Shown: positions 41,105-55,525 of the stretch, piece after piece | Position numbering within the stretch: the stretch's first letter is position 1 | How the letters are laid out: every line of letters begins with the position of its first letter | NCBI GenBank assembly: GCA_963707025.1 | Contig: CAVPOM010000004.1 | Location: 640,001 to 704,000 of the forward strand | Source: an uncultured Verrucomicrobiae bacterium | Lineage (GTDB): Bacteria > Verrucomicrobiota > Verrucomicrobiia > Limisphaerales > Palsa-1400 | Direction of reading: 5' to 3' | DNA length: 64,000 bases | The notes under the pieces: generated by a model | Told to the model about the DNA's origin: nothing | What the model saw: the letters and a program-made list of their open reading frames with translations, nothing else | Database searches by the model: none | Made by a program: the position numbers and the translations under genes

Positions 41105-41347
41105 CTAAGGGCGCTTGCCGCTCTTGCGGCCGCGATGGCCCTTGCGCCGCGTAACGCTTTCGATCATGAGTGAACTGAGATGATGCGGGGTTTCGTCGGC
41201 CTCAAAGAAGATGATAAACGAGCCTTTGGGCGAAACCATAACAAAATCCGGATGCGGCACGACAAAGCTTTCGCCGCTTACCATTTGGATTTTATATGGC
41301 TGGAACGGCACCGCGCGATTAAATTCACGTATTGATGTGACGACCAT
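41105..41347 (-). CDS. Small hypothetical protein
   Basis: 80 aa with PFQPYKIQMVSGESFVVPHPD, a pattern recalled from small PVC proteins. Confidence 0.6.
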   Translation of the reverse strand: MVVTSIREFNRAVPFQPYKIQMVSGESFVVPHPDFVMVSPKGSFIIFFEADETPHHLSSLMIESVTRRKGHRGRKSGKRP

Positions 41348-45322: not shown

Positions 45323-46435
45323 TCAGGGGTAGCGGACGGTTTGGACGAATTGGGTGAAGGCATCTTTTTCACGGGCCACGACCGCGCCCGCCCCCATCAA
45401 TTTATAGAACCAGGTCTGGCCGGCGTGCGGCACGGTGACGGCCACCATCCGGCTGGGCTGGCCGCCGGCGTCTGTGCCGGTCAGATCCACCAGTGTGGCC
45501 TTTCCGCCCAGCACATCCAGGGATGCCGTGGCCTTCGCCAGCCCATCCTCCGCAATGTCCGGCAAATTCAACTGCCTGCGCCAGCGATTAACGTTGGCCA
45601 GCGTGCCGCCGCCTTCGCCGCCCAAAACGCTGATGCTGACAACGGCTTTCTGGCCCGCGTCGCCCGCGATGGAGAAGCTTTTCATCACCATGGCGCCGGG
45701 CGGGGTTTCCATCCAGTTCGCCGGGGTGTTCCATTTGGGTTGGTCGTTGGAATTGCCAGGGGCGGCCATGCCCATGCCCATGCCCATGCCCACGCCGGTC
45801 ATGCCCGCGTGCGGATCGGCCTTCGTCACGGCGGCATCGCTTCCGCCGAAATGGACCGATTTTAGAAACTCAAGAAAAACCGGTTTCGCTCCTGCCACCA
45901 CTTCCGCGTCTCCGCGCATTTTAAAAAACCACGAAGCGCCGTCGCGCGGAATCATCGCCACCACCGTCCGTTGCGAGGCGCCCGCCATCTCGTAAAGTTT
46001 TCCTTCGTTGGAATCCACCACCGTCTTTTCGGACACAATGTCTTTTTCCGTGATGTCGCCCAGGCCGACCTCCTGCCGCCAGCGGTTGACGTTGGCCAGC
46101 GTGCCTCCCACGTCGCCGGGAAAGGAGGTGATCGTCACCTCGGCCTTTTTGTCGCCGGGCCCCGGCACCACAAAATTGCCCAGGCGGATGCTGTTGGGCG
46201 GCATTTCCTTCCAGCCGGGCGGCGTGGTCCAATGGACGGCGGCGGAGTTGACGGGGACCGGCGGGGCATCCGCGCCCATCATGGACATGCCGGGGGTCCC
46301 CTGGTTCTGGGCCGCCGGGGCTGGCGCCGCCGGTTCCTTGGGGGCGTCATAACTTTTGATTTGATTGTCGCGCCGGCATCCCGCCAAAAGGCCGGTCACC
46401 AAGCACGCCGAAACAACTGCGCAAGATAATTTCAT
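45323..46435 (-). CDS. Lipoprotein with tandem duplicated domain, first gene of the ccs operon
   Basis: Lipobox LLAGC; two copies of W.TP..W...GGTLANVNRWR...WF.K(M/L); DPHAGMTGVGMGMGMGM linker. Confidence 0.75.
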   Translation of the reverse strand: MKLSCAVVSACLVTGLLAGCRRDNQIKSYDAPKEPAAPAPAAQNQGTPGMSMMGADAPPVPVNSAAVHWTTPPGWKEMPPNSIRLGNFVVPGPGDKKAEVTITSFPGDVGGTLANVNRWRQEVGLGDITEKDIVSEKTVVDSNEGKLYEMAGASQRTVVAMIPRDGASWFFKMRGDAEVVAGAKPVFLEFLKSVHFGGSDAAVTKADPHAGMTGVGMGMGMGMAAPGNSNDQPKWNTPANWMETPPGAMVMKSFSIAGDAGQKAVVSISVLGGEGGGTLANVNRWRRQLNLPDIAEDGLAKATASLDVLGGKATLVDLTGTDAGGQPSRMVAVTVPHAGQTWFYKLMGAGAVVAREKDAFTQFVQTVRYP

Positions 46436-46672
46436 TTCGAGTGAACACAACATAGCACGCCCCGCGCCGGGCAAAAGACGTTTTTTTCGTTTCCCGTGGC
46501 ATCAACGTGGCACCCTTTGGGCTTCGCCGATCCTGGGCGGGGGCTTGCCAGACATCTGCGATTGGCGGAATCTCCTTGAATTTGTCGTGAAGGACTGCGA
46601 ACAATTGCAACCAAATTATGACAGCGCCGTGGCGCGAAGCGGCGACGAGTCGAACTGAATGGACGACAAATC

Positions 46673-48100
46673 ATGCTAACAAATCTCCAGCTCAAGAACT
46701 TCAAGATTTGGAGGGACACCAAGCCTTTTAAGATGGCCCCCTTGACGGTCCTGTTCGGCACGAACAGTTCGGGCAAAAGCAGTATCGAGCAATTTTTCTT
46801 GATGCTCAAACAGACGATGGAATCCTCCGACCGCAAGGTCGTAATTTATCCCGGGGACCGGGACTCGGCGGTAAACCTCGGCTCGTTCGAAGAACTCGTC
46901 TTCGCCCGCGATCCCAAGAACAAGCTCGAATTTAACTTTGAGTGGAGCTTGGCAAAACCCCTTACCATCAAAGACCCCCGCTCTGAATTCGCCTGCTCTG
47001 GAGACCACCTCCGCTTCTCCGCAGACGTAGGCATGGCAGGAGAAAAGCACCCTAAGCTCGCCGTGGGTCGGTTTGAGTATGAACTCAAGCAGGACGGCAG
47101 CGACGTGATGCGCGTGTGGGTCGTGCGCAAAGCCGGCGAAAAGATCGAATACAAACTTGACGCCTCACCTTATACCCTGATTCGCAATCAGATGCGGGCC
47201 TGGCCGCTCGGCGCCCCCACCAAGTTCTTCGGCTTCCCGGACGAAATTCCGGCCTACTATCAAAATGCCGACTTTGTGCAGGATTTCAGCCTCCAAATGG
47301 AGCAATTGCTTCGCTCCATCAGCTACCTGGGCCCGCTGCGATCCAAGGGCGAAAGGCTCTACTACTGGACCGGCGGCGAACCTGCAAGTGTCGGCTATTC
47401 CGGTGAGAATACGATTAGCGCCCTCCTCGCCGCTAAAGCACGCCAACTCAACACCGGAAGGAAAAAGAGAAGGAAGCCTTTCGAACAGTTTATCGCCGAG
47501 AAACTGCATCAGCTTGAACTGATTGATGAGTTCGAAGTAAAACAGATATCCGAGCATCGCAAAGAATACGAAGTGAAGGTCAAGACGCCAGGTTCCCCAT
47601 TCTGGGTGGACGTTCCTGATGTCGGCTTCGGCATTTCACAGGTCTTGCCCGTCTTGGTGCAGTGCTTCTACGCGCCCGCTGACTCGATTCTCTTCATCGA
47701 ACAACCGGAATTGCACCTCCATCCCAAAGCCCAATCGAACCTCGCGGACTTGTTCATCAATGTTCTATCTTCTCGGGTTGACGGCAGGCCGCGCAACATT
47801 CAACTCGTGATCGAGACACATTCCGAACATTTTCTTCACAGACTCCAGCGCCGTATCGCCGAAAACCACCCGGATCGTCTTATTACTCCCGACCAAGTCG
47901 CCGCTTATTTTGCTTACACCACTGGCGCCGACTCAAAGTTGGAGCCACTCCAGATTGACCTCCTTGGTAACGTCATTAATTGGCCGGAGAATTTCTTTGG
48001 CGACAGCATGGGCGATCTCACGGCCATGACCCAAGCGGCAGCCCTGCGCGAACAGGCGCGCACCATTCCAAATATCCAACCGAAGGCTGCCACAGAGTGA
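46673..48100 (+). CDS. ABC-type (AAA_15/AAA_21) ATPase with DUF3696-like C-terminus
   Basis: LKNFK, Walker A GTNSSGKS, DVGFGISQVLP, FIEQPELHLHP, VIETHSEH, C-terminal IDLLGNVINWPENFFG. Confidence 0.9.
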   Translation: MLTNLQLKNFKIWRDTKPFKMAPLTVLFGTNSSGKSSIEQFFLMLKQTMESSDRKVVIYPGDRDSAVNLGSFEELVFARDPKNKLEFNFEWSLAKPLTIKDPRSEFACSGDHLRFSADVGMAGEKHPKLAVGRFEYELKQDGSDVMRVWVVRKAGEKIEYKLDASPYTLIRNQMRAWPLGAPTKFFGFPDEIPAYYQNADFVQDFSLQMEQLLRSISYLGPLRSKGERLYYWTGGEPASVGYSGENTISALLAAKARQLNTGRKKRRKPFEQFIAEKLHQLELIDEFEVKQISEHRKEYEVKVKTPGSPFWVDVPDVGFGISQVLPVLVQCFYAPADSILFIEQPELHLHPKAQSNLADLFINVLSSRVDGRPRNIQLVIETHSEHFLHRLQRRIAENHPDRLITPDQVAAYFAYTTGADSKLEPLQIDLLGNVINWPENFFGDSMGDLTAMTQAAALREQARTIPNIQPKAATE

Positions 48101-48624
48101 GCGCCGTGGTGATTGATACGAACGTCCTGCTCGTAGCCGATGGTAAAGCCAACCAGATGTCGGCAGGTTGCCGCGCGGAATGTGCGCAACGCCTTGAAGC
48201 GGTCAAAAAAGGGGATCGCGTTGTCTTGGATCAGCAGTGGTTGATTTTGCGTGAGTATCAAAATAAACTCAGTCCGTCCGGCAAACCGCCAACGCCAGGG
48301 AACCTCTTTCTTAAATGGCTGATGACAGTCTGTCGCAATGAGCAACATGTCTCACAAGTTTCGATCACACCAACGAATCGGGATCAAACGAAGTTCGCGG
48401 AGTTTCCAGACGACGAGCCTCTTGAATTGGCATTCGATCCGGAGGATCGAAAGTTTGTTGCAGCCGCGCATGTGCATCCAGACAATCCACCAATTTTAGA
48501 AGCAGCCGATTGCAAATGGCTGGGTTGGGAAGCCAGTCTGAAACGACATGGCATACAACTGGAAGTTCTCTGCCGGTGCGAACTTGAATTAATTCGGAAA
48601 CGCAAAAAAGGTGCGGGAACATGA
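48097..48624 (+). CDS. PIN-domain-like nuclease
   Basis: GTG start overlaps the ATPase stop (GTGA); acidic tetrad VIDTNV, ILREY, DPEDRKFVAAA, EAADCKW. Confidence 0.75.
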   Translation: MSAVVIDTNVLLVADGKANQMSAGCRAECAQRLEAVKKGDRVVLDQQWLILREYQNKLSPSGKPPTPGNLFLKWLMTVCRNEQHVSQVSITPTNRDQTKFAEFPDDEPLELAFDPEDRKFVAAAHVHPDNPPILEAADCKWLGWEASLKRHGIQLEVLCRCELELIRKRKKGAGT

Positions 48625-49310
48625 CCGATGCCTTCCACAAGTTTCCCCACACGCCCCATCTGCTTTGGCTCGGTCTTGGATCGCCGCGTGACGACAAAAT
48701 TCTCAAGGCGGCAGAGGCCGCTGATTTCCTGTCCGCGGAAGTAATCGTCGAAGAGAAGGTGGACGGGGCAAATTTAGGTTTGTCTCTTGGCCCCGACGGC
48801 CGTGTGCGCGCCCAAAGTCGCGGCAATTATCTTGCCTCCGGCCGCAGTCATGCCCAATGGAATCCTCTCTGGCCGTGGCTTGCCGAACGACGTGATATTT
48901 TGGAAAATGGTCTGAGCAACGGCTTGGTAATTTTTGGTGAATGGTGCTATGCCCGGCACACTGTTCCTTACGACGCCCTGCCGGACTGGTTTCTCGGTTT
49001 CGATATTTTCGAAGTTGCTTCACGACGCTTCTGGTCGGTGGAGCGGCGGAATGAGTGGCTGCGACAGAAGGGCTTGGTTTCGGTCCCGGAAGTCAAACGA
49101 GGGCATTTATCCAGCAAGCGCCTGCCTTCCTTGCTGGGCAATTCCGCGGTTGGAAGCACGCCGATGGAGGGCATTTACTTGCGGCGCGATCAGGATGGCT
49201 GGCTCCAGGCACGGGCCAAGGTTGTCAGCACGGCCTTTCAGCAGCAAATTGAGGAACACTGGACACGTCGTACCGTGACCCCAAATCAACTGGCGCTGGT
49301 CCATGTTTGA
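48621..49310 (+). CDS. ATP-dependent RNA ligase family nucleotidyltransferase (Rnl2-like, stand-alone)
   Basis: ATGA overlap; KFPHTPHL, motif I EEKVDGAN, QSRG, IFGEW, FLGFDI, MEGIY, RAKVV. Confidence 0.87.
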   Translation: MTDAFHKFPHTPHLLWLGLGSPRDDKILKAAEAADFLSAEVIVEEKVDGANLGLSLGPDGRVRAQSRGNYLASGRSHAQWNPLWPWLAERRDILENGLSNGLVIFGEWCYARHTVPYDALPDWFLGFDIFEVASRRFWSVERRNEWLRQKGLVSVPEVKRGHLSSKRLPSLLGNSAVGSTPMEGIYLRRDQDGWLQARAKVVSTAFQQQIEEHWTRRTVTPNQLALVHV

Positions 49311-49342
49311 AAAACCGCCGATGCCGGGAGCACCTTCCAACC

Positions 49343-51585
49343 ATGAACTCTGACATCCCCGGTTGGCGCACGGACTTCGACAGGGAGTTTACCGCCGCGC
49401 GCCTGGCGCTGCTGCTGGGCGTGCTCATGCTCGTCTCCTATCCGGACATCGTCCTTGGCACGCACGCTTTCTTTTACCGCGATACCGGGCAATTCGGGTT
49501 CCCGGTCGCGTATTATTTGCGGGATTGCTTTTGGCGCGGCGAGGTTCCGCTGTGGAATCCTTACAATAATTGCGGCCTTCCCTTTCTCGCCCAGTGGAAC
49601 ACGCTGGCCCTTTATCCGCCGTCCTTGTTCTACGAGTTGCTGCCTATGCCCTGGGCGATGAACTTTTTCATTCTGGGCCATGTTTTTCTGGCGGGAATCG
49701 GGATGTACTTTCTGGCCTTGCGCTGGTTTGGCAATCGCCTGGCCGCCAGTTTCGCCGGCCTGATTTTCGCCTGGAACGGGCTGGCTCTGCATTGCTGGAT
49801 GTGGCCCTGCCACATTGCCGCCCTGGCCTGGATGCCGTGGGTGGTGCTGCTGGCCGAACGGGCCTGGAGCGGAGGCCAACGCCCTGTCGCCGGGGCGGCG
49901 CTGGCCGGCGCATGCCAGATGGTGACCGGCTCGCCGGAAATAATCATCTTTACATGGCTGATCGTGCTGGGAGTTTTCCTGCCTCGAGGTCTGGCGGCAA
50001 AAGCGTTTGTCCTGGGGCGGGGCGGGGCGGCTGGCCTCGGTGGTCGTGCTCGTCACGGCCCTGAGCGCGGCGCAACTTCTGCCCTGGCTGGATTTGCTGG
50101 CGCACGGCGACCGCACCACGGCTGTCGGCGACAACACCTGGGCGATGCCGGTGTGGGGCGCGGCCAATTTTCTCGTCCCGCTTTTCCGCATGACCTCATC
50201 GCTCAGCGGCGTCTGGATGCAACCGGGCCAGGAATGGACAACGTCTTATTACGCGGGCATCCTCACGCTGCTGCTGGCGTTGCTGGCGGTGGCGAAGGTG
50301 CGCAACGCGCGGACCGCCTTGCTGGGCCTGCTGGCTTTGGGGGGCGTGCTTTGTGCCATGGGCGATTCCGGCCTGCTCCTTAAAATTTTGAAAACGCTCG
50401 CGCCCGCTTTGGGTTTGACCCGTTTCCCGATCAAATTTGTCGTGGTCACGATTTTTTGTTTGCCGCTGCTGGCGGCCGCGGGAATGGTCTGGCTGCAGAG
50501 CGGCGCGGCGTGGCGCGCGCGCCGCAGCTTGCTGGTCATCGGCGGAGCGCTCGCCGTCGCGGTGGCGGCTCTGGCCTTTGGCGTTCCCTATGCCGAGGAC
50601 TCGCGCCGCGTGGTTGGGGCCAATGGCGCCGTGCGCCTGCTGATTCTCGCGGCGGGACTGGCCGCCATGCTTTTTCAGCCGCGCCTTCCGCGCAAGGCGG
50701 GACAGCTCGCAGTCTCTTTCGCGTTTTTATTTTTGTCCGGCCTGGACATCTGCACCCATGTCCCGCGCCAGAACCCAACCGTTCCCGTCCGGGACTACGG
50801 GGCCCTGACTCCGCCCATGACCGCCGTGCCGCGCCTGGGAGAATCGCGCGCCATGCCGGGCCGGGCAGGCCCAGGACCTGCTGCTCAGGCTGGTCAATCC
50901 GGACTTGGAGACCCATTATTTGGGACAGCGCTCCATGCTCTTCAGCGATTGCAATCTGCTGGATAAAATTCCGAAAGTGAACGGCTTTTTTTCCATTCAT
51001 CCGCGGGAAGAAGCCGCCGTGGCCCGGCTGCTCTATGGCTCGAACTCGTTGCCCCGATTGGAGGAATTCCTCGGCGTGTCGCAACTGGGCGTCGCCCAAA
51101 TTTCCCCGCTCAAGCTGGCTTGGGAGCCGCGCACCAATTTCATGCCCTGGGCCACCCTCGGCCAGCAGCCGCTTTTCCTGGATGACGACGCCACCCTGGC
51201 CGCGATGAGCCGGCCCGATTTCGCGCCGCGCGCCGTGGTTTATTTGCCCTCCGATGCGCGCGAAAAGGTTTCCGCCAGGGCCGATCCGCGGGCGCGCCTG
51301 GTGTCAAGCACGATCACGGCGGAGAAATGCGCCTTTCAGACGCAGGCGGCGACCGCCACCATGCTGGTGATGGCGCAGGGCTGGTATCATTGCTGGCAAG
51401 CCTCGGTGGATGGGAGCGGCGTTCCGTTATGGCGGGCCAACGGCGGATTTCAGGCTGTTGAAGTCCCCGCCGGCAATCATCAAGTTCTGTTTGAGTACAA
51501 AGACCGCGCCTTCCAACTCGGCTGCGCAATTTCCGTCGTGGCCTTGTTAGGTTGCGCAGTCCTGTTTTTTGCAAAGAACAAGTAA
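49343..51585 (+). CDS. YfhO-like multi-pass membrane protein (GT-C type), split by apparent frameshifts
   Basis: [22 protein letters not shown] at the N-terminus; many TM segments; [11 protein letters not shown]...[20 protein letters not shown] at the C-terminus; frame changes near 49990 and 50860-50905. Confidence 0.8.
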
Positions 51586-51665
51586 CGCCGCCCGCTCCGG
51601 CCCTGTCTGGCGGAGTAGAGCCGGGATATGAGATTGCGCAATCGGCAGAGCTATGGTGAGGCAAG

Positions 51666-53212
51666 TCAACTCACCTGCATGGAGAGGAGGAATTCGATAT
51701 TGGTGCGGATTTTTTTCAGCTTGCCCAGCAGCAGTTCCATCGCCTCCACCGGCGGGACGCCGGTCAGGGCGCGGCGCAGGATGACCACTTTGTTGTATTC
51801 GTCGGGATGGTAGAGCAGTTCCTCCTTGCGCGTGCCGGACAGTTCGATGTTGATGGAGGGGAAGATGCGCCGGTCCACCAGATGCGCGGTCCAGATTGAC
51901 CTCCATGTTGCCCGTGCCCTTGAATTCCTCAAAAATGACCTCGTCCATGCGCGAGCCGGTGTCCACCAGCGCGGTGGCGATGATGGTGAGCGAGCCGCCT
52001 TCCTCAATGTTGCGCGCCGCGCCGAAAAAGCGCTTGGGTTTGTGCAGGGCGTTGGCGTCCACCCCGCCGGACAGGATTTTGCCGGAATGCGGCTGGATGG
52101 TGTTGTAGGCGCGGGCCAGGCGGGTGATGGAGTCAAGCAGAATGACAGTGTCGCTTCTTGTGCTCGATCATGCGCTTGGCCTTTTCGATCACCATCTCCG
52201 CCACCTGGACGTGGCGCTCGGGCGGCTCGTCGAAGGTGGAGCTGATGACCTCGGCGCCGCGGCAACTGCGTTCCATGTCGGTGACTTCCTCGGGGCGCTC
52301 GTCAATCAGAAGGATGAAGAGGTAGGCTTCCGGGTTGTTCTTCAGGATGGCGTTGGCCAGCTTTTGCATCAGGACCGTTTTGCCCGTGCGCGGCGGGGCC
52401 ACGATCAGGCCGCGCGTGCCTTTGCCGATGGGGCAGACCAGGTCCAGCACGCGCGTGGAAAGTTCGTCCGGCGAGGTTTCCAGGAGGTAGCGCTTGTTGG
52501 GAAACAGCGGGGTCAGATTGTCGAAATGGGTCTTGTCTTTGGCCTTGTCCGGGTCTTCCGTGTCCACCGCCTCGACTTTGAGCAGGGCGAAGAAGCGTTC
52601 CTTGTCCTTGGGCGGGCGGATCTGGCCGGCGATGAGATTGCCGGTTTGCAGGTCGAAACGGCGGATTTGGGAGGGGGAGACGTAAATGTCCTCCGGGCAG
52701 GGGAGGTAATTGAAACTGCGCGAGCGCAGAAAGCCGAAGCCTTCGGGCAGGATTTCCAGGACGCCTTCGGAGAAGAGGACCCCCGCGCGCTCGGCATTTT
52801 TTTGCAGGATTTGGAAGATGATCTCGTGCTTGCGCATCGTGCCGAAGTTCTCGATGCCCATGTCCTGGGCCATGTGGTTGAGGTCGGCCATGGCCATGGC
52901 CTGGAGCTTGGCGATGTTCGTGGCGCCGCCGCCAGGCCCCTTGGCCGGGCGGACGGGGGATTCCTCCTCCGGGCTGGATTCGACGGCGTGGGTGGGCGGT
53001 TCCAGTTTCATTTCGGCGGGCGGCGGCGGGGCGGCCTTGCCTTTGGCGTGGGCCGGCCGGGCAGGGGACGGCCTTTCGGGCGGGGCCGCCTCCGGCGCGG
53101 GAGACGGTTCGGGCGGCGTCCCGGTCAGGGCGGCCTCTGCGGGGACAGGGGCGGCCGGAGGGGCGGTCTTGGCGCCTTTCTTTGTCACCTTTTTTGTGGC
53201 TGCTCTAGGCAT
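51666..53212 (-). CDS. rho: Transcription termination factor Rho (apparent frameshifts ~52154 and ~51883)
   Basis: [77 protein letters not shown] spread over three frames; Pro/Ala-rich N-terminal extension. Confidence 0.95.
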
Positions 53213-53296
53213 GGTAAAAAAATGGATTGCCGGACCCAGGACACGGGCAGGACACCTTCCGCACTGCGGCCCAATCGGGATCAAACCTGAATTTTC

Positions 53297-55468
53297 TTAA
53301 TATGGCAAGGGATACTTTGCCGTCAACTCACGCACACGATCTCTCACCTGGCGGGCCGTGTCAAGGTTCTTAATATCCAACAAGACTTCGCTGATCATGT
53401 CCGCCACGGCGGCCATCTCCGGCTCCTTCATGCCGCGGGTGGTCACGGCCGGGGTCCCCAGCCGGATGCCGCTGGCCTGGAAGGGGGAGCGGGTCTCGAA
53501 GGGGATGGTGTTCTTGTTCACCGTGATGCCCGCTTCGTCCAGGGCGGCCTGGCATTCCTTGCCGGTCAAGCCGCGCGCGCCCACGTCCACCAGCATGAGG
53601 TGGTTGTCGGTTCCGCCGCTGACCAGGCGGAAACGGTTGTGGATCATGCCTTCGGCCAGGGCCTGGGCGTTTTTGAGGATTTGCTCCTGATACTCGCGAA
53701 AGGCCGGCTGCAAGGCCTCCAGGAAACAGACGGCCTTGGCGGCAATGACATGCATGAGCGGTCCGCCTTGAATGCCGGGAAAGATCTGGGAGTCAATCTC
53801 CTTGGCGTATTTCTCCTTGCACAGCACCAGCCCGCCGCGCGGCCCGCGCAGGGTTTTATGGGTGGTGGTGGTGACAAAATCGGCGTGTTCCACCGGGCTG
53901 GGATGCAGCCCCGCCGCCACCAATCCGGCGATGTGGGCGATGTCGGCCAGCAGCCAGGCTCCCACCTCCCGGGCGATCTGGCCCATCCGCTGAAAATCAA
54001 TGATGCGCGGATAGGCGCTGGCGCCCACGGTGATCATGCGCGGACGGTGTTGCTGCGCCATTTTCTGCAATTGATCGTAATCAATCCGCTCATCCTCCTT
54101 GCGCACGCCGTAGTGGACGATTTCAAAAAAGCGGCCGGAGAAATTGGCCTTGTTGCCGTGGGTCAGGTGGCCGCCGTGGGAAAGGTCCATGGTCAGCATC
54201 TTATCGCCCGGCTTGAGCATGGCAAAGTAAACGGCCATGTTGGCCTGGCTGCCGGAATGGGGCTGGACGTTGGCATGCTCGGCGCCGAAGAGTTTTTTGG
54301 CCCGCTCGATGGCCAGCCGCTCCACCGTGTCCATGTGCTCGCAGCCGCCGTACCAGCGTTTGCCGGGGTAGCCCTCGGCGTATTTGTTGGTCAGAACCGA
54401 ACCTTGCGCCTCCAGGACGGCGGGGCTGACAAAGTTCTCGCTGGCGATCAATTCGATGTTTTCCTGCTGGCGCTGTTTTTCCAGAAAGAGCGCGTCGGCG
54501 ATGTCGGGATCCACGCTGCGCAGGCGGAGCGGGGCGGGGGTGGGGTTGTGTATTTCCATTTTATTGACACGACTCTGGTGCCGGCCCCCCTCAAAGGAGG
54601 TGGACAGAAAGATGTCGAGGATTTTGACCGCCCGGTCGGGGGGGGTGGTGCCCGCGCCCAGGCAGAGAATATTGGCGTCGTGGTGCTGGCGGCAGAGCGC
54701 GGCCATGGACTCATCGAAGACCAGCGCGGCGCGCGCGCCGGGGATTTTGTTGGCGGAAATGCTGACGCCAATCCCCGTCGCGCACACCAGCAGGCCAAAA
54801 ACGCTTTTGCGGGCCGCCACCTGCTCGCCCACCGCGTGGCCCAATTCGGTCGCGTCGCACGTTTCGGCGGAAGGCGTCCCCAAATCCACCAGCGAAATGC
54901 CGGAGGCCTGCAGATGCTGCTTGAGATGTTCCTTGAGGGCGAAGCCCGCCTGATCGGAGCCCAGGGCGATGCGGCTCTCCGGCGCGGCGCCGGCCGTCTC
55001 CGGGGCCTGGGCGGTTTGTTCCATGAATTTGAGCATGGAGAGAATCCCCTGCTCGATCTGGTCGCGGCAATAGGTGTAGGTTTCGTAGGAGCCGCCGATG
55101 GGATCGCCGATGTCCTTCTCAAAGTCATCCAGCGTCTCGTCAAATTCGCGCAGCAAAAAAGTCTTTTCCACCGCCTGCGGAAACAGCAGGTTGATCGAAT
55201 CCACATGGCTGTGGGTCATCCCGAAAATATAATCCGCCTGCTCCACCAGTTCCTGAGTGAGCATGCGGCTGCGCAGGTTGGCAATGTCAATGCCCAGTTC
55301 GCGCAGCGCCCGCACCGCATGGACCGTCGGCGGCTGGCCGTCCACGGCGCCGACCCCGGCCGAGAGGGCCTGGAAATCATGGCGGCCCCGCACGGCGTGC
55401 TGGAAGAGTCCTTCGGCCATCGGGCTGCGGCAAACATTGCCGGTGCAAACAAATAAAATTGTCTTCAT
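53297..55468 (-). CDS. glyA: Fusion: LMW protein-Tyr/Arg phosphatase + RpiB + serine hydroxymethyltransferase
   Basis: [14 protein letters not shown]...[16 protein letters not shown]...[56 protein letters not shown], all in one ORF. Confidence 0.93.
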
Positions 55469-55525
55469 TCCTGCCATTACGCCGTCAAACCTTGCGCGGT
55501 GCCCGGAGCATCGTCAATCCAAGAA

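Follow-up and report, generated by a model that had tools for sequence, protein, structure and literature searches.

A predicted RNA ligase in one operon with a HEC-03-type ABC ATPase and PIN nuclease: a candidate three-gene defence cassette in a Verrucomicrobiae bacterium

HEC-03 was described as a two-gene anti-phage system in which an ABC ATPase and a VapC-like PIN protein are both required for defence in E. coli (Payne 2024, 10.1101/2024.01.29.577857). Its representative is toxic upon induction, and the word "ligase" does not occur in the accessible portion of the preprint's main text (10.1101/2024.01.29.577857). In Menshen, the ABC ATPase NsnB carries DUF3696, and its tails are predicted to grip a domain with the PIN fold; according to the accessible sections of its description, Menshen requires the ParB-DUF262 protein NsnA, and its PIN domain lacks activity and forms one polypeptide with a C-terminal nuclease (Li et al., PMC12065111). 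In PARIS and Septu an ABC ATPase (AriA and PtuA, respectively) controls a nuclease (AriB and PtuB), and neither system as described includes a ligase. The effector of Septu is an HNH protein. AriB of PARIS is a TOPRIM protein that cleaves tRNA, as reported in the accessible text of PMC12409363.

Here we analysed a window of 64,000 nucleotides (the whole stretch of DNA under study) from an uncultured Verrucomicrobiae bacterium, for which the original prediction had proposed a defence cassette encoding an ABC ATPase, a PIN nuclease and an RNA ligase. The cassette and its surroundings comprise the following features.

45323..46474, minus strand: left flank, outside the cassette; conserved hypothetical gene without a Pfam family, preceding ResB-like and cytochrome c assembly genes
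46495..49339, no strand: inserted low-GC block, consisting of an upstream region of ~180 bp and the three genes (empty site in genome G807; GC content)
46673..48100, plus strand: ABC ATPase with a DUF3696 tail, 475 aa; HEC-03 ATPase, with Menshen NsnB as sister family (PADLOC, Pfam, motifs)
48097..48624, plus strand: predicted VapC-like PIN ribonuclease, the HEC-03 effector; GTG start, 175 aa (PADLOC, fold, acidic residues)
48621..49310, plus strand: predicted stand-alone ATP-dependent RNA ligase with a nucleotidyltransferase domain only, 229 aa (Pfam, model, fold)
49343..51585, plus strand: right flank, outside the cassette; fragmented gene for a YfhO-like membrane protein (tblastn; Pfam YfhO at the C-terminus)

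As had been proposed, the three genes are real, intact and joined by stop/start overlaps, GTGA between ATPase and PIN and ATGA between PIN and ligase. The low GC content was borne out as well: the cassette has a GC of 0.542 vs 0.602 for the genome, placing it in the lowest 4.5% among 2628 equal-sized windows, and the GC3 of its genes is 0.49–0.67 vs 0.77–0.81 in five flanking genes. The genome holds a single copy of the cassette. Its claimed insertion between a ccs operon and a YfhO-like gene is confirmed by G807, a genome of the same genus with flanks of ~91% nucleotide identity, in which 49 bp replaces window positions 46495–49339. Homology to this empty site stops at 46494 and restarts at 49340. 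The YfhO-like gene, however, lies in pieces and starts at 49343. The left flank gene is present in 52/61 related genomes, the window's own counted, and in five same-genus genomes it lies beside the ATPase in two, the YfhO-like gene in two and neither in one. The inserted block measures 2.8 kb and holds three genes only, and the empty site together with the same-genus comparison indicates that these were gained or lost as one unit. Neither terminal repeats nor a target duplication could be made out convincingly at the block ends, and a search for a sigma-70-like promoter of the cassette was negative. No kinase or phosphatase gene lies within the block, again as predicted; RtcB and kinase-like genes exist elsewhere in the genome.

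The right flank has peculiarities of its own. The YfhO-like gene aligned by tblastn in four segments that change among three frames (window 49343–51585), vs a one-frame copy in L002; it forms one or two segments in L001, L002 and G806, and the G807 copy is broken near residue 176–239. Its fragmentation in the window reflects either decay or an assembly error. The adjacent Rho-like gene (51547–53284) apparently also occupies two frames, with a break near 52130–52260, and the frame splits of both genes may be indel errors in the assembly. Window positions 53297–55477 hold one 726-aa frame that, judged by its translation, appears to combine a low-molecular-weight phosphatase-like domain, an RpiB-like domain and serine hydroxymethyltransferase. 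On the other side, a minus-strand frame of 80 aa (41105–41347) between secA and the cytochrome c genes has no Pfam family.

The ATPase matched the PADLOC model named HEC-03B over residues 1–460 (E 3e-116), far above the models for NsnB (E 6e-59) and PDC-M55A, and gave weak matches to the AriA and PtuA models. On the PADLOC results we discarded Menshen, PARIS and PDC-M55 as the family to which the cassette belongs. Pfam AAA_15, AAA_21 and DUF3696 (E 4e-9, residues 404–449) were detected, together with a Walker A motif (29–36), an ABC-signature region (316–320) and an H-loop (381–386); the Walker B region (341–346) reads EQ where DE is expected. The PIN protein, an unfused single domain of 175 aa, matched the model named HEC-03A (E 8e-29, residues 4–159), its sole PADLOC match. 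The letters used by PADLOC, B for the ATPase and A for the PIN, are opposite to those in the accessible preprint text. The structural model of the PIN (pLDDT 96.6) had VapC21 as its best match in a wide fold search (Z 9.6, rmsd 3.6, 127 aligned residues), and Foldseek gave no match at E ≤ 0.001. Its acidic residues D7, E53, D117 and D138, as well as D45 and D114, occur in the window and in 79/79 complete trios. Across these 79 trios, divergence of the ATPase goes hand in hand with that of the PIN (rho 0.72), in agreement with the predicted DUF3696 clamp on a PIN-fold domain in Menshen.

By these model matches, which cover nearly the full length of both proteins, the ATPase and PIN are HEC-03, a named and validated two-gene anti-phage system, and the core of the cassette is already known. 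The proposal of a defence cassette is upheld by this identity; the statement that the trio is not a named system is not supported, and the match to HEC-03 amounts to part of the refutation that the original prediction had itself named. The ligase has no PADLOC model. HEC-03 was described and tested as two genes, with anti-phage activity reported, in the accessible text, for the preprint's representative only, whereas here a third gene follows. The cassette shares with Menshen an ABC ATPase with a DUF3696 tail; it differs in that no ParB-DUF262 gene lies in the three-gene block, the flanks being ccs-type and YfhO genes, in that its PIN is intact and alone, and in that its third gene encodes a ligase. 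It likewise differs from PARIS in its effector, which both PADLOC and fold identify as a PIN.

The third protein has a single Pfam domain, RNA_ligase (PF09414, E 2e-32). Residues K46, D48, G49, R67, E107, F127, D128, E183, G184 and K200 are invariant in the window and in 79/79 complete trios, so that the catalytic motifs of PIN and ligase are intact, as originally stated. We take these residues to be the KxDG motif I and motifs Ia, III, IIIa, IV and V, and K46 is the predicted adenylated lysine; position 202 is a valine in 78/79 complete trios, not a second lysine. The ligase model (pLDDT 92.3) matches Naegleria RNA ligase, trypanosome REL1, T4 Rnl2 and archaeal ligases (E 9e-8 to 1e-5). A phmmer search against solved structures found no match, whereas a profile search did. 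Neither this ligase nor two further cassette ligases compared with PADLOC has a model there. A profile search retrieved 5298 representatives at E ≤ 0.001, and among 26 long relatives scanned from the best 150, 19/26 carry kinase-like, 2H or phosphatase domains, none of which occurs in the cassette ligase. From its domain content the protein is a bare Rnl2/3/5-like domain. It shares domain family and fold with Swiss Army Knife-type RNA repair proteins, which are fused to 2H, phosphatase or kinase-like domains, and with Rnl2, Rnl3 and Rnl5, which have extra domains, but differs from both in being a bare 229-aa domain within a nuclease operon. Distant stand-alone relatives (22–38% identity) are found in large phages and viral contigs (L183–L257, H31–H44) without PIN or ATPase, and some viral contigs carry such a gene twice.

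The co-occurrence of the ligase with ATPase-PIN pairs, on which the original prediction depended, proved to be conserved across many phyla. Among the best 80 of 582 ligase relatives, picked by likeness to the window's ligase, PIN lies directly upstream in 69/80, with the ATPase also present in 67; ten have no PIN and one is undecidable. Conversely, among the best 80 of 537 PIN relatives, retrieved with an alignment taken mostly from ligase-bearing loci and including a few near-copies, the ligase follows the PIN in 31/76 decidable loci and is absent from 45/76, four being cut by contig ends. Two less biased samples were also screened. In 401 same-phylum genomes the ligase follows the PIN in 5/6 non-self HEC-03 PIN loci, and 401 genomes of a betaproteobacterial family yielded 21 PIN loci, namely 14 trios, 4 PIN-ligase and 3 ATPase-PIN loci (ligase in 18/21). 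Every PIN had the ATPase, the ligase or both beside it among the 76 decidable PIN-anchored loci (from the best 80 of 537) and the 21 betaproteobacterial ones. PIN and ligase share the 4-base overlap in 59/96 ligase-bearing loci. Given the linkage in 69/80, 31/76 and 18/21 loci, chance neighbourhood was rejected as an explanation of the ligase.

In an unrooted FastTree phylogeny of 125 ATPases, whose sampling leans to ligase-bearing loci, the ligase label switches 7 times vs a shuffled mean of 37. Ligase-bearing loci lie on both sides of the midpoint (deepest) split, and ligase-less loci form one 36-row clade and scattered single losses. The simpler reading of this tree would be an ancestral trio with later losses of the ligase. 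A longer PIN tail had seemed to mark ligase-bearing loci (89/96 vs 26/47), and this candidate was dropped because the ligase-less rows belong mostly to one clade and because, of 8 inspected PINs that lack a ligase but branch within ligase-bearing groups, most retain the long tail. Single loci depart from the plain trio. In L014 (6151–10813) two more genes lie behind the trio, one for another ATPase with DUF3696, which is NsnB-like, and one of 180 aa without a Pfam or PADLOC match. An insertion sequence splits the ATPase from the PIN in L037 (6129–7354, on a contig shared with L155), with PIN and ligase intact downstream. L091 and L092 (Bacteroidota) have HEC-03-like ATPases with no detectable PIN or ligase behind them.

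Seven genomes of one lineage, including four of Aquabacterium, carry PIN and ligase with no adjacent ATPase.

L147 3998..5178, and likewise L149, L168, L174, L264, L265 and L268: PIN and ligase without ATPase, a two-gene module

These genomes, whose assemblies are possibly incomplete, yielded no HEC-03 ATPase of full length; G455 gave a distant partial match. The four Aquabacterium PINs retain their acidic residues, and pairwise dN/dS values are 0.11–0.50 for PIN and 0.03–0.21 for the ligase (L174, with its ligase in two frames, left out). By these ratios the pair without ATPase is under purifying selection, and its retention indicates that the link between PIN and ligase outlasts the ATPase. 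Beside most of these modules, on the opposite strand at a shared site, lies a gene that we take from its sequence to encode an ExeA-like ATPase.

The trio is also found on mobile elements. Among viral loci, 3/80 carry it, and in L180 and L182 it is the sole cargo between integrase and psu in P4-like elements. This slot of P4 was described as a defence hotspot (10.1101/2021.01.21.427644), in an accessible text in which "ligase" does not occur. Of 53 plasmid records with a match, four regions were opened and 4/4 hold the trio, Azotobacter pAcX50e being one of them; a Myxococcus locus (L017) carries it too. Three trios used as blastn queries had no match among complete E. coli genomes.

In the reading that we favour, and regard as evenly poised between right and wrong, the PIN is under the control of the ATPase and cleaves host RNA (probably tRNA), and the breaks are closed again by the ligase. 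By analogy with Menshen, PARIS and Septu, an oligomer of the ABC ATPase would hold the PIN via its DUF3696 tails and sense a phage signal. Cleavage by the released PIN would then halt translation; defence itself was shown for the two-gene homolog, and RNA is the presumed target. The ligase would act as the PIN's own repair enzyme that directly reseals 5'-P/3'-OH cuts, offsetting leaky cutting in uninfected cells and letting the cell recover. It would be coupled to the PIN through the cut RNA and not by a fixed protein contact, and could for this reason be swapped or lost; such coupling would account for both the persistence of PIN-ligase pairs without ATPase and the exchange of ligases. Prediction of a PIN-ligase complex scored 0.00 in two runs, in which no controls were folded.

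This reading depends on the ends that the PIN leaves. The accessible text of PMC7824862 states that ligases of the Rnl2/3/5-like class require 5'-P/3'-OH, and the cassette ligase is predicted to seal RNA breaks of this kind. A ligase without healing domains is what one would expect for a substrate that requires no healing, and the absence of healing genes favours a PIN that would leave 5'-P ends. Several eukaryotic PIN-type nucleases leave 5'-P. In the accessible texts, VapC products carry 5'-OH (PMC6459853, PMC4705866) or either end (PMC10945364). Ends of the 5'-OH type, if formed, could not be joined by the cassette ligase alone, which would count against resealing. A ligase that undoes the cuts would also work against defence unless it were slower than the activated PIN. 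Further points against resealing are that the ligase is absent from many PIN loci (45/76, from the best 80 of 537), that the validated system has two genes, that the ATPase-less genomes belong to one lineage, and that a close ligase follows another gene pair in three loci. Being optional, the ligase is not an essential antitoxin. A broader and more tentative form of the reading, which we hold to be possible though somewhat doubtful, is that PIN and ligase form a self-resetting toxin-antitoxin pair, viable without ATPase in the Aquabacterium-type loci, in which the antitoxin rejoins the toxin's cuts; together with the ATPase they would make up an ancestral three-gene HEC-03 through which phage infection triggers a reversible dormancy, and the two-gene system that was tested would have arisen by reduction.

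The ligase might instead serve defence islands as a general accessory for RNA repair, only loosely tied to the PIN, that mends cuts inflicted by neighbouring systems or by phage nucleases; we think this rather unlikely. Its exchange between cassettes speaks for such a role. The window's cassette is a mosaic, with an ATPase 67–74% identical to those of six Planctomycete cassettes whose ligases are 44–48% identical, and a ligase 74% identical to the window's is paired with an ATPase of 51% identity. Ligase divergence correlates weakly with that of ATPase and PIN (rho 0.21 and 0.22; shuffle maxima 0.14 and 0.10; 79 trios), in a set whose choice by likeness to the window's ligase narrowed the range and lowered the correlations, and ligase and ATPase have the same nearest neighbour in 36/79 trios. 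On these comparisons the ligase is dispensable and swappable, as it appears from the sequences. The same role is favoured by the 10/80 ligase loci without PIN and by the at least two BREX genes in 14/80 (both among the best 80 of 582), as well as by L003, L006 and L010, in which a 72–79% identical ligase follows the pair PDC-M07A/B (L003 6193–8687). A DruE-like helicase occurs in 9/80 of the ligase loci and type I or IIG restriction genes in some, and HEC-03 too is embedded in larger defence loci according to the accessible preprint text. A loosely tied accessory is, however, at odds with the fixed position and start/stop overlap of the ligase, its presence on both sides of the deepest ATPase-tree split, its retention with the PIN after ATPase loss, and its movement together with ATPase and PIN at sites away from islands, such as the one in the window. 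As separate observations, the PDC-M07A/B-ligase group lies within a BREX locus in L003 and L010, and PDC-M07B (~180 aa) has no Pfam family.

Tight linkage to the PIN would fit equally well with a ligase that aids killing, by adenylylating, circularising or mis-joining PIN products and so blocking their restoration by phage RNA-repair enzymes. The cassette ligase is a catalytic domain only, and truncated T4 Rnl2 adenylylates ends and seals nicks poorly. Archaeal Rnl3 enzymes circularise or adenylylate RNA, and both T4 Rnl2 and archaeal ligases are among the nearest structures; the related ligases in large phages make phage repair a plausible pressure. Two-gene HEC-03 already defends, however, a PIN-ligase pair without its regulator is more easily explained by a protective ligase, and relatives of the ligase occur in repair-type multi-domain proteins, and we consider a killing role unlikely. 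A DNA-directed system, with a PIN that makes nicks in DNA or resects it and a ligase that closes DNA nicks, is highly improbable: frequent location inside BREX and restriction-modification loci and weaker fold matches to DNA ligases would fit it, but RNA ligases and VapC RNases match best, and the 229-aa model has no space for an OB or DNA-binding domain.

No description of ATPase, PIN and ligase together was found in a literature search that included the accessible texts of PMC7824862, PMC3710099, PMC12409363, PMC9252829 and PMC12707154. A prior computational mention of the trio is quite possible. Burroughs and Aravind 2016 and Krishnan 2020, outside that search, reportedly survey gene neighbourhoods of the cassette's sort. 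The cassette would be a three-gene form of HEC-03 with a known core and an apparently undescribed ligase add-on.

The best-known RNA repair in phage conflict is a phage counter-measure, T4 Pnk/Rnl1 against PrrC. The two cases share RNA cutting and religation, as presented in the accessible text of PMC12409363, but there the phage encodes the ligase and a kinase is needed for healing, whereas the cassette ligase is host-encoded, lies in the nuclease's own operon and comes with no healing enzyme. The HEC-03 definition in detection tools omits a gene that is present in many loci, and a family of 229-aa single-domain RNA ligases is of biochemical interest in itself. The ligase is also a possible tool to trap and identify the target of the HEC-03 PIN and its end chemistry. 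If the resealing reading is true, a host ligase encoded in one operon with the defence RNase that it serves would give the system an off-switch of its own, which bears on the standing question of whether RNase-based immunity leads to death or to reversible dormancy.
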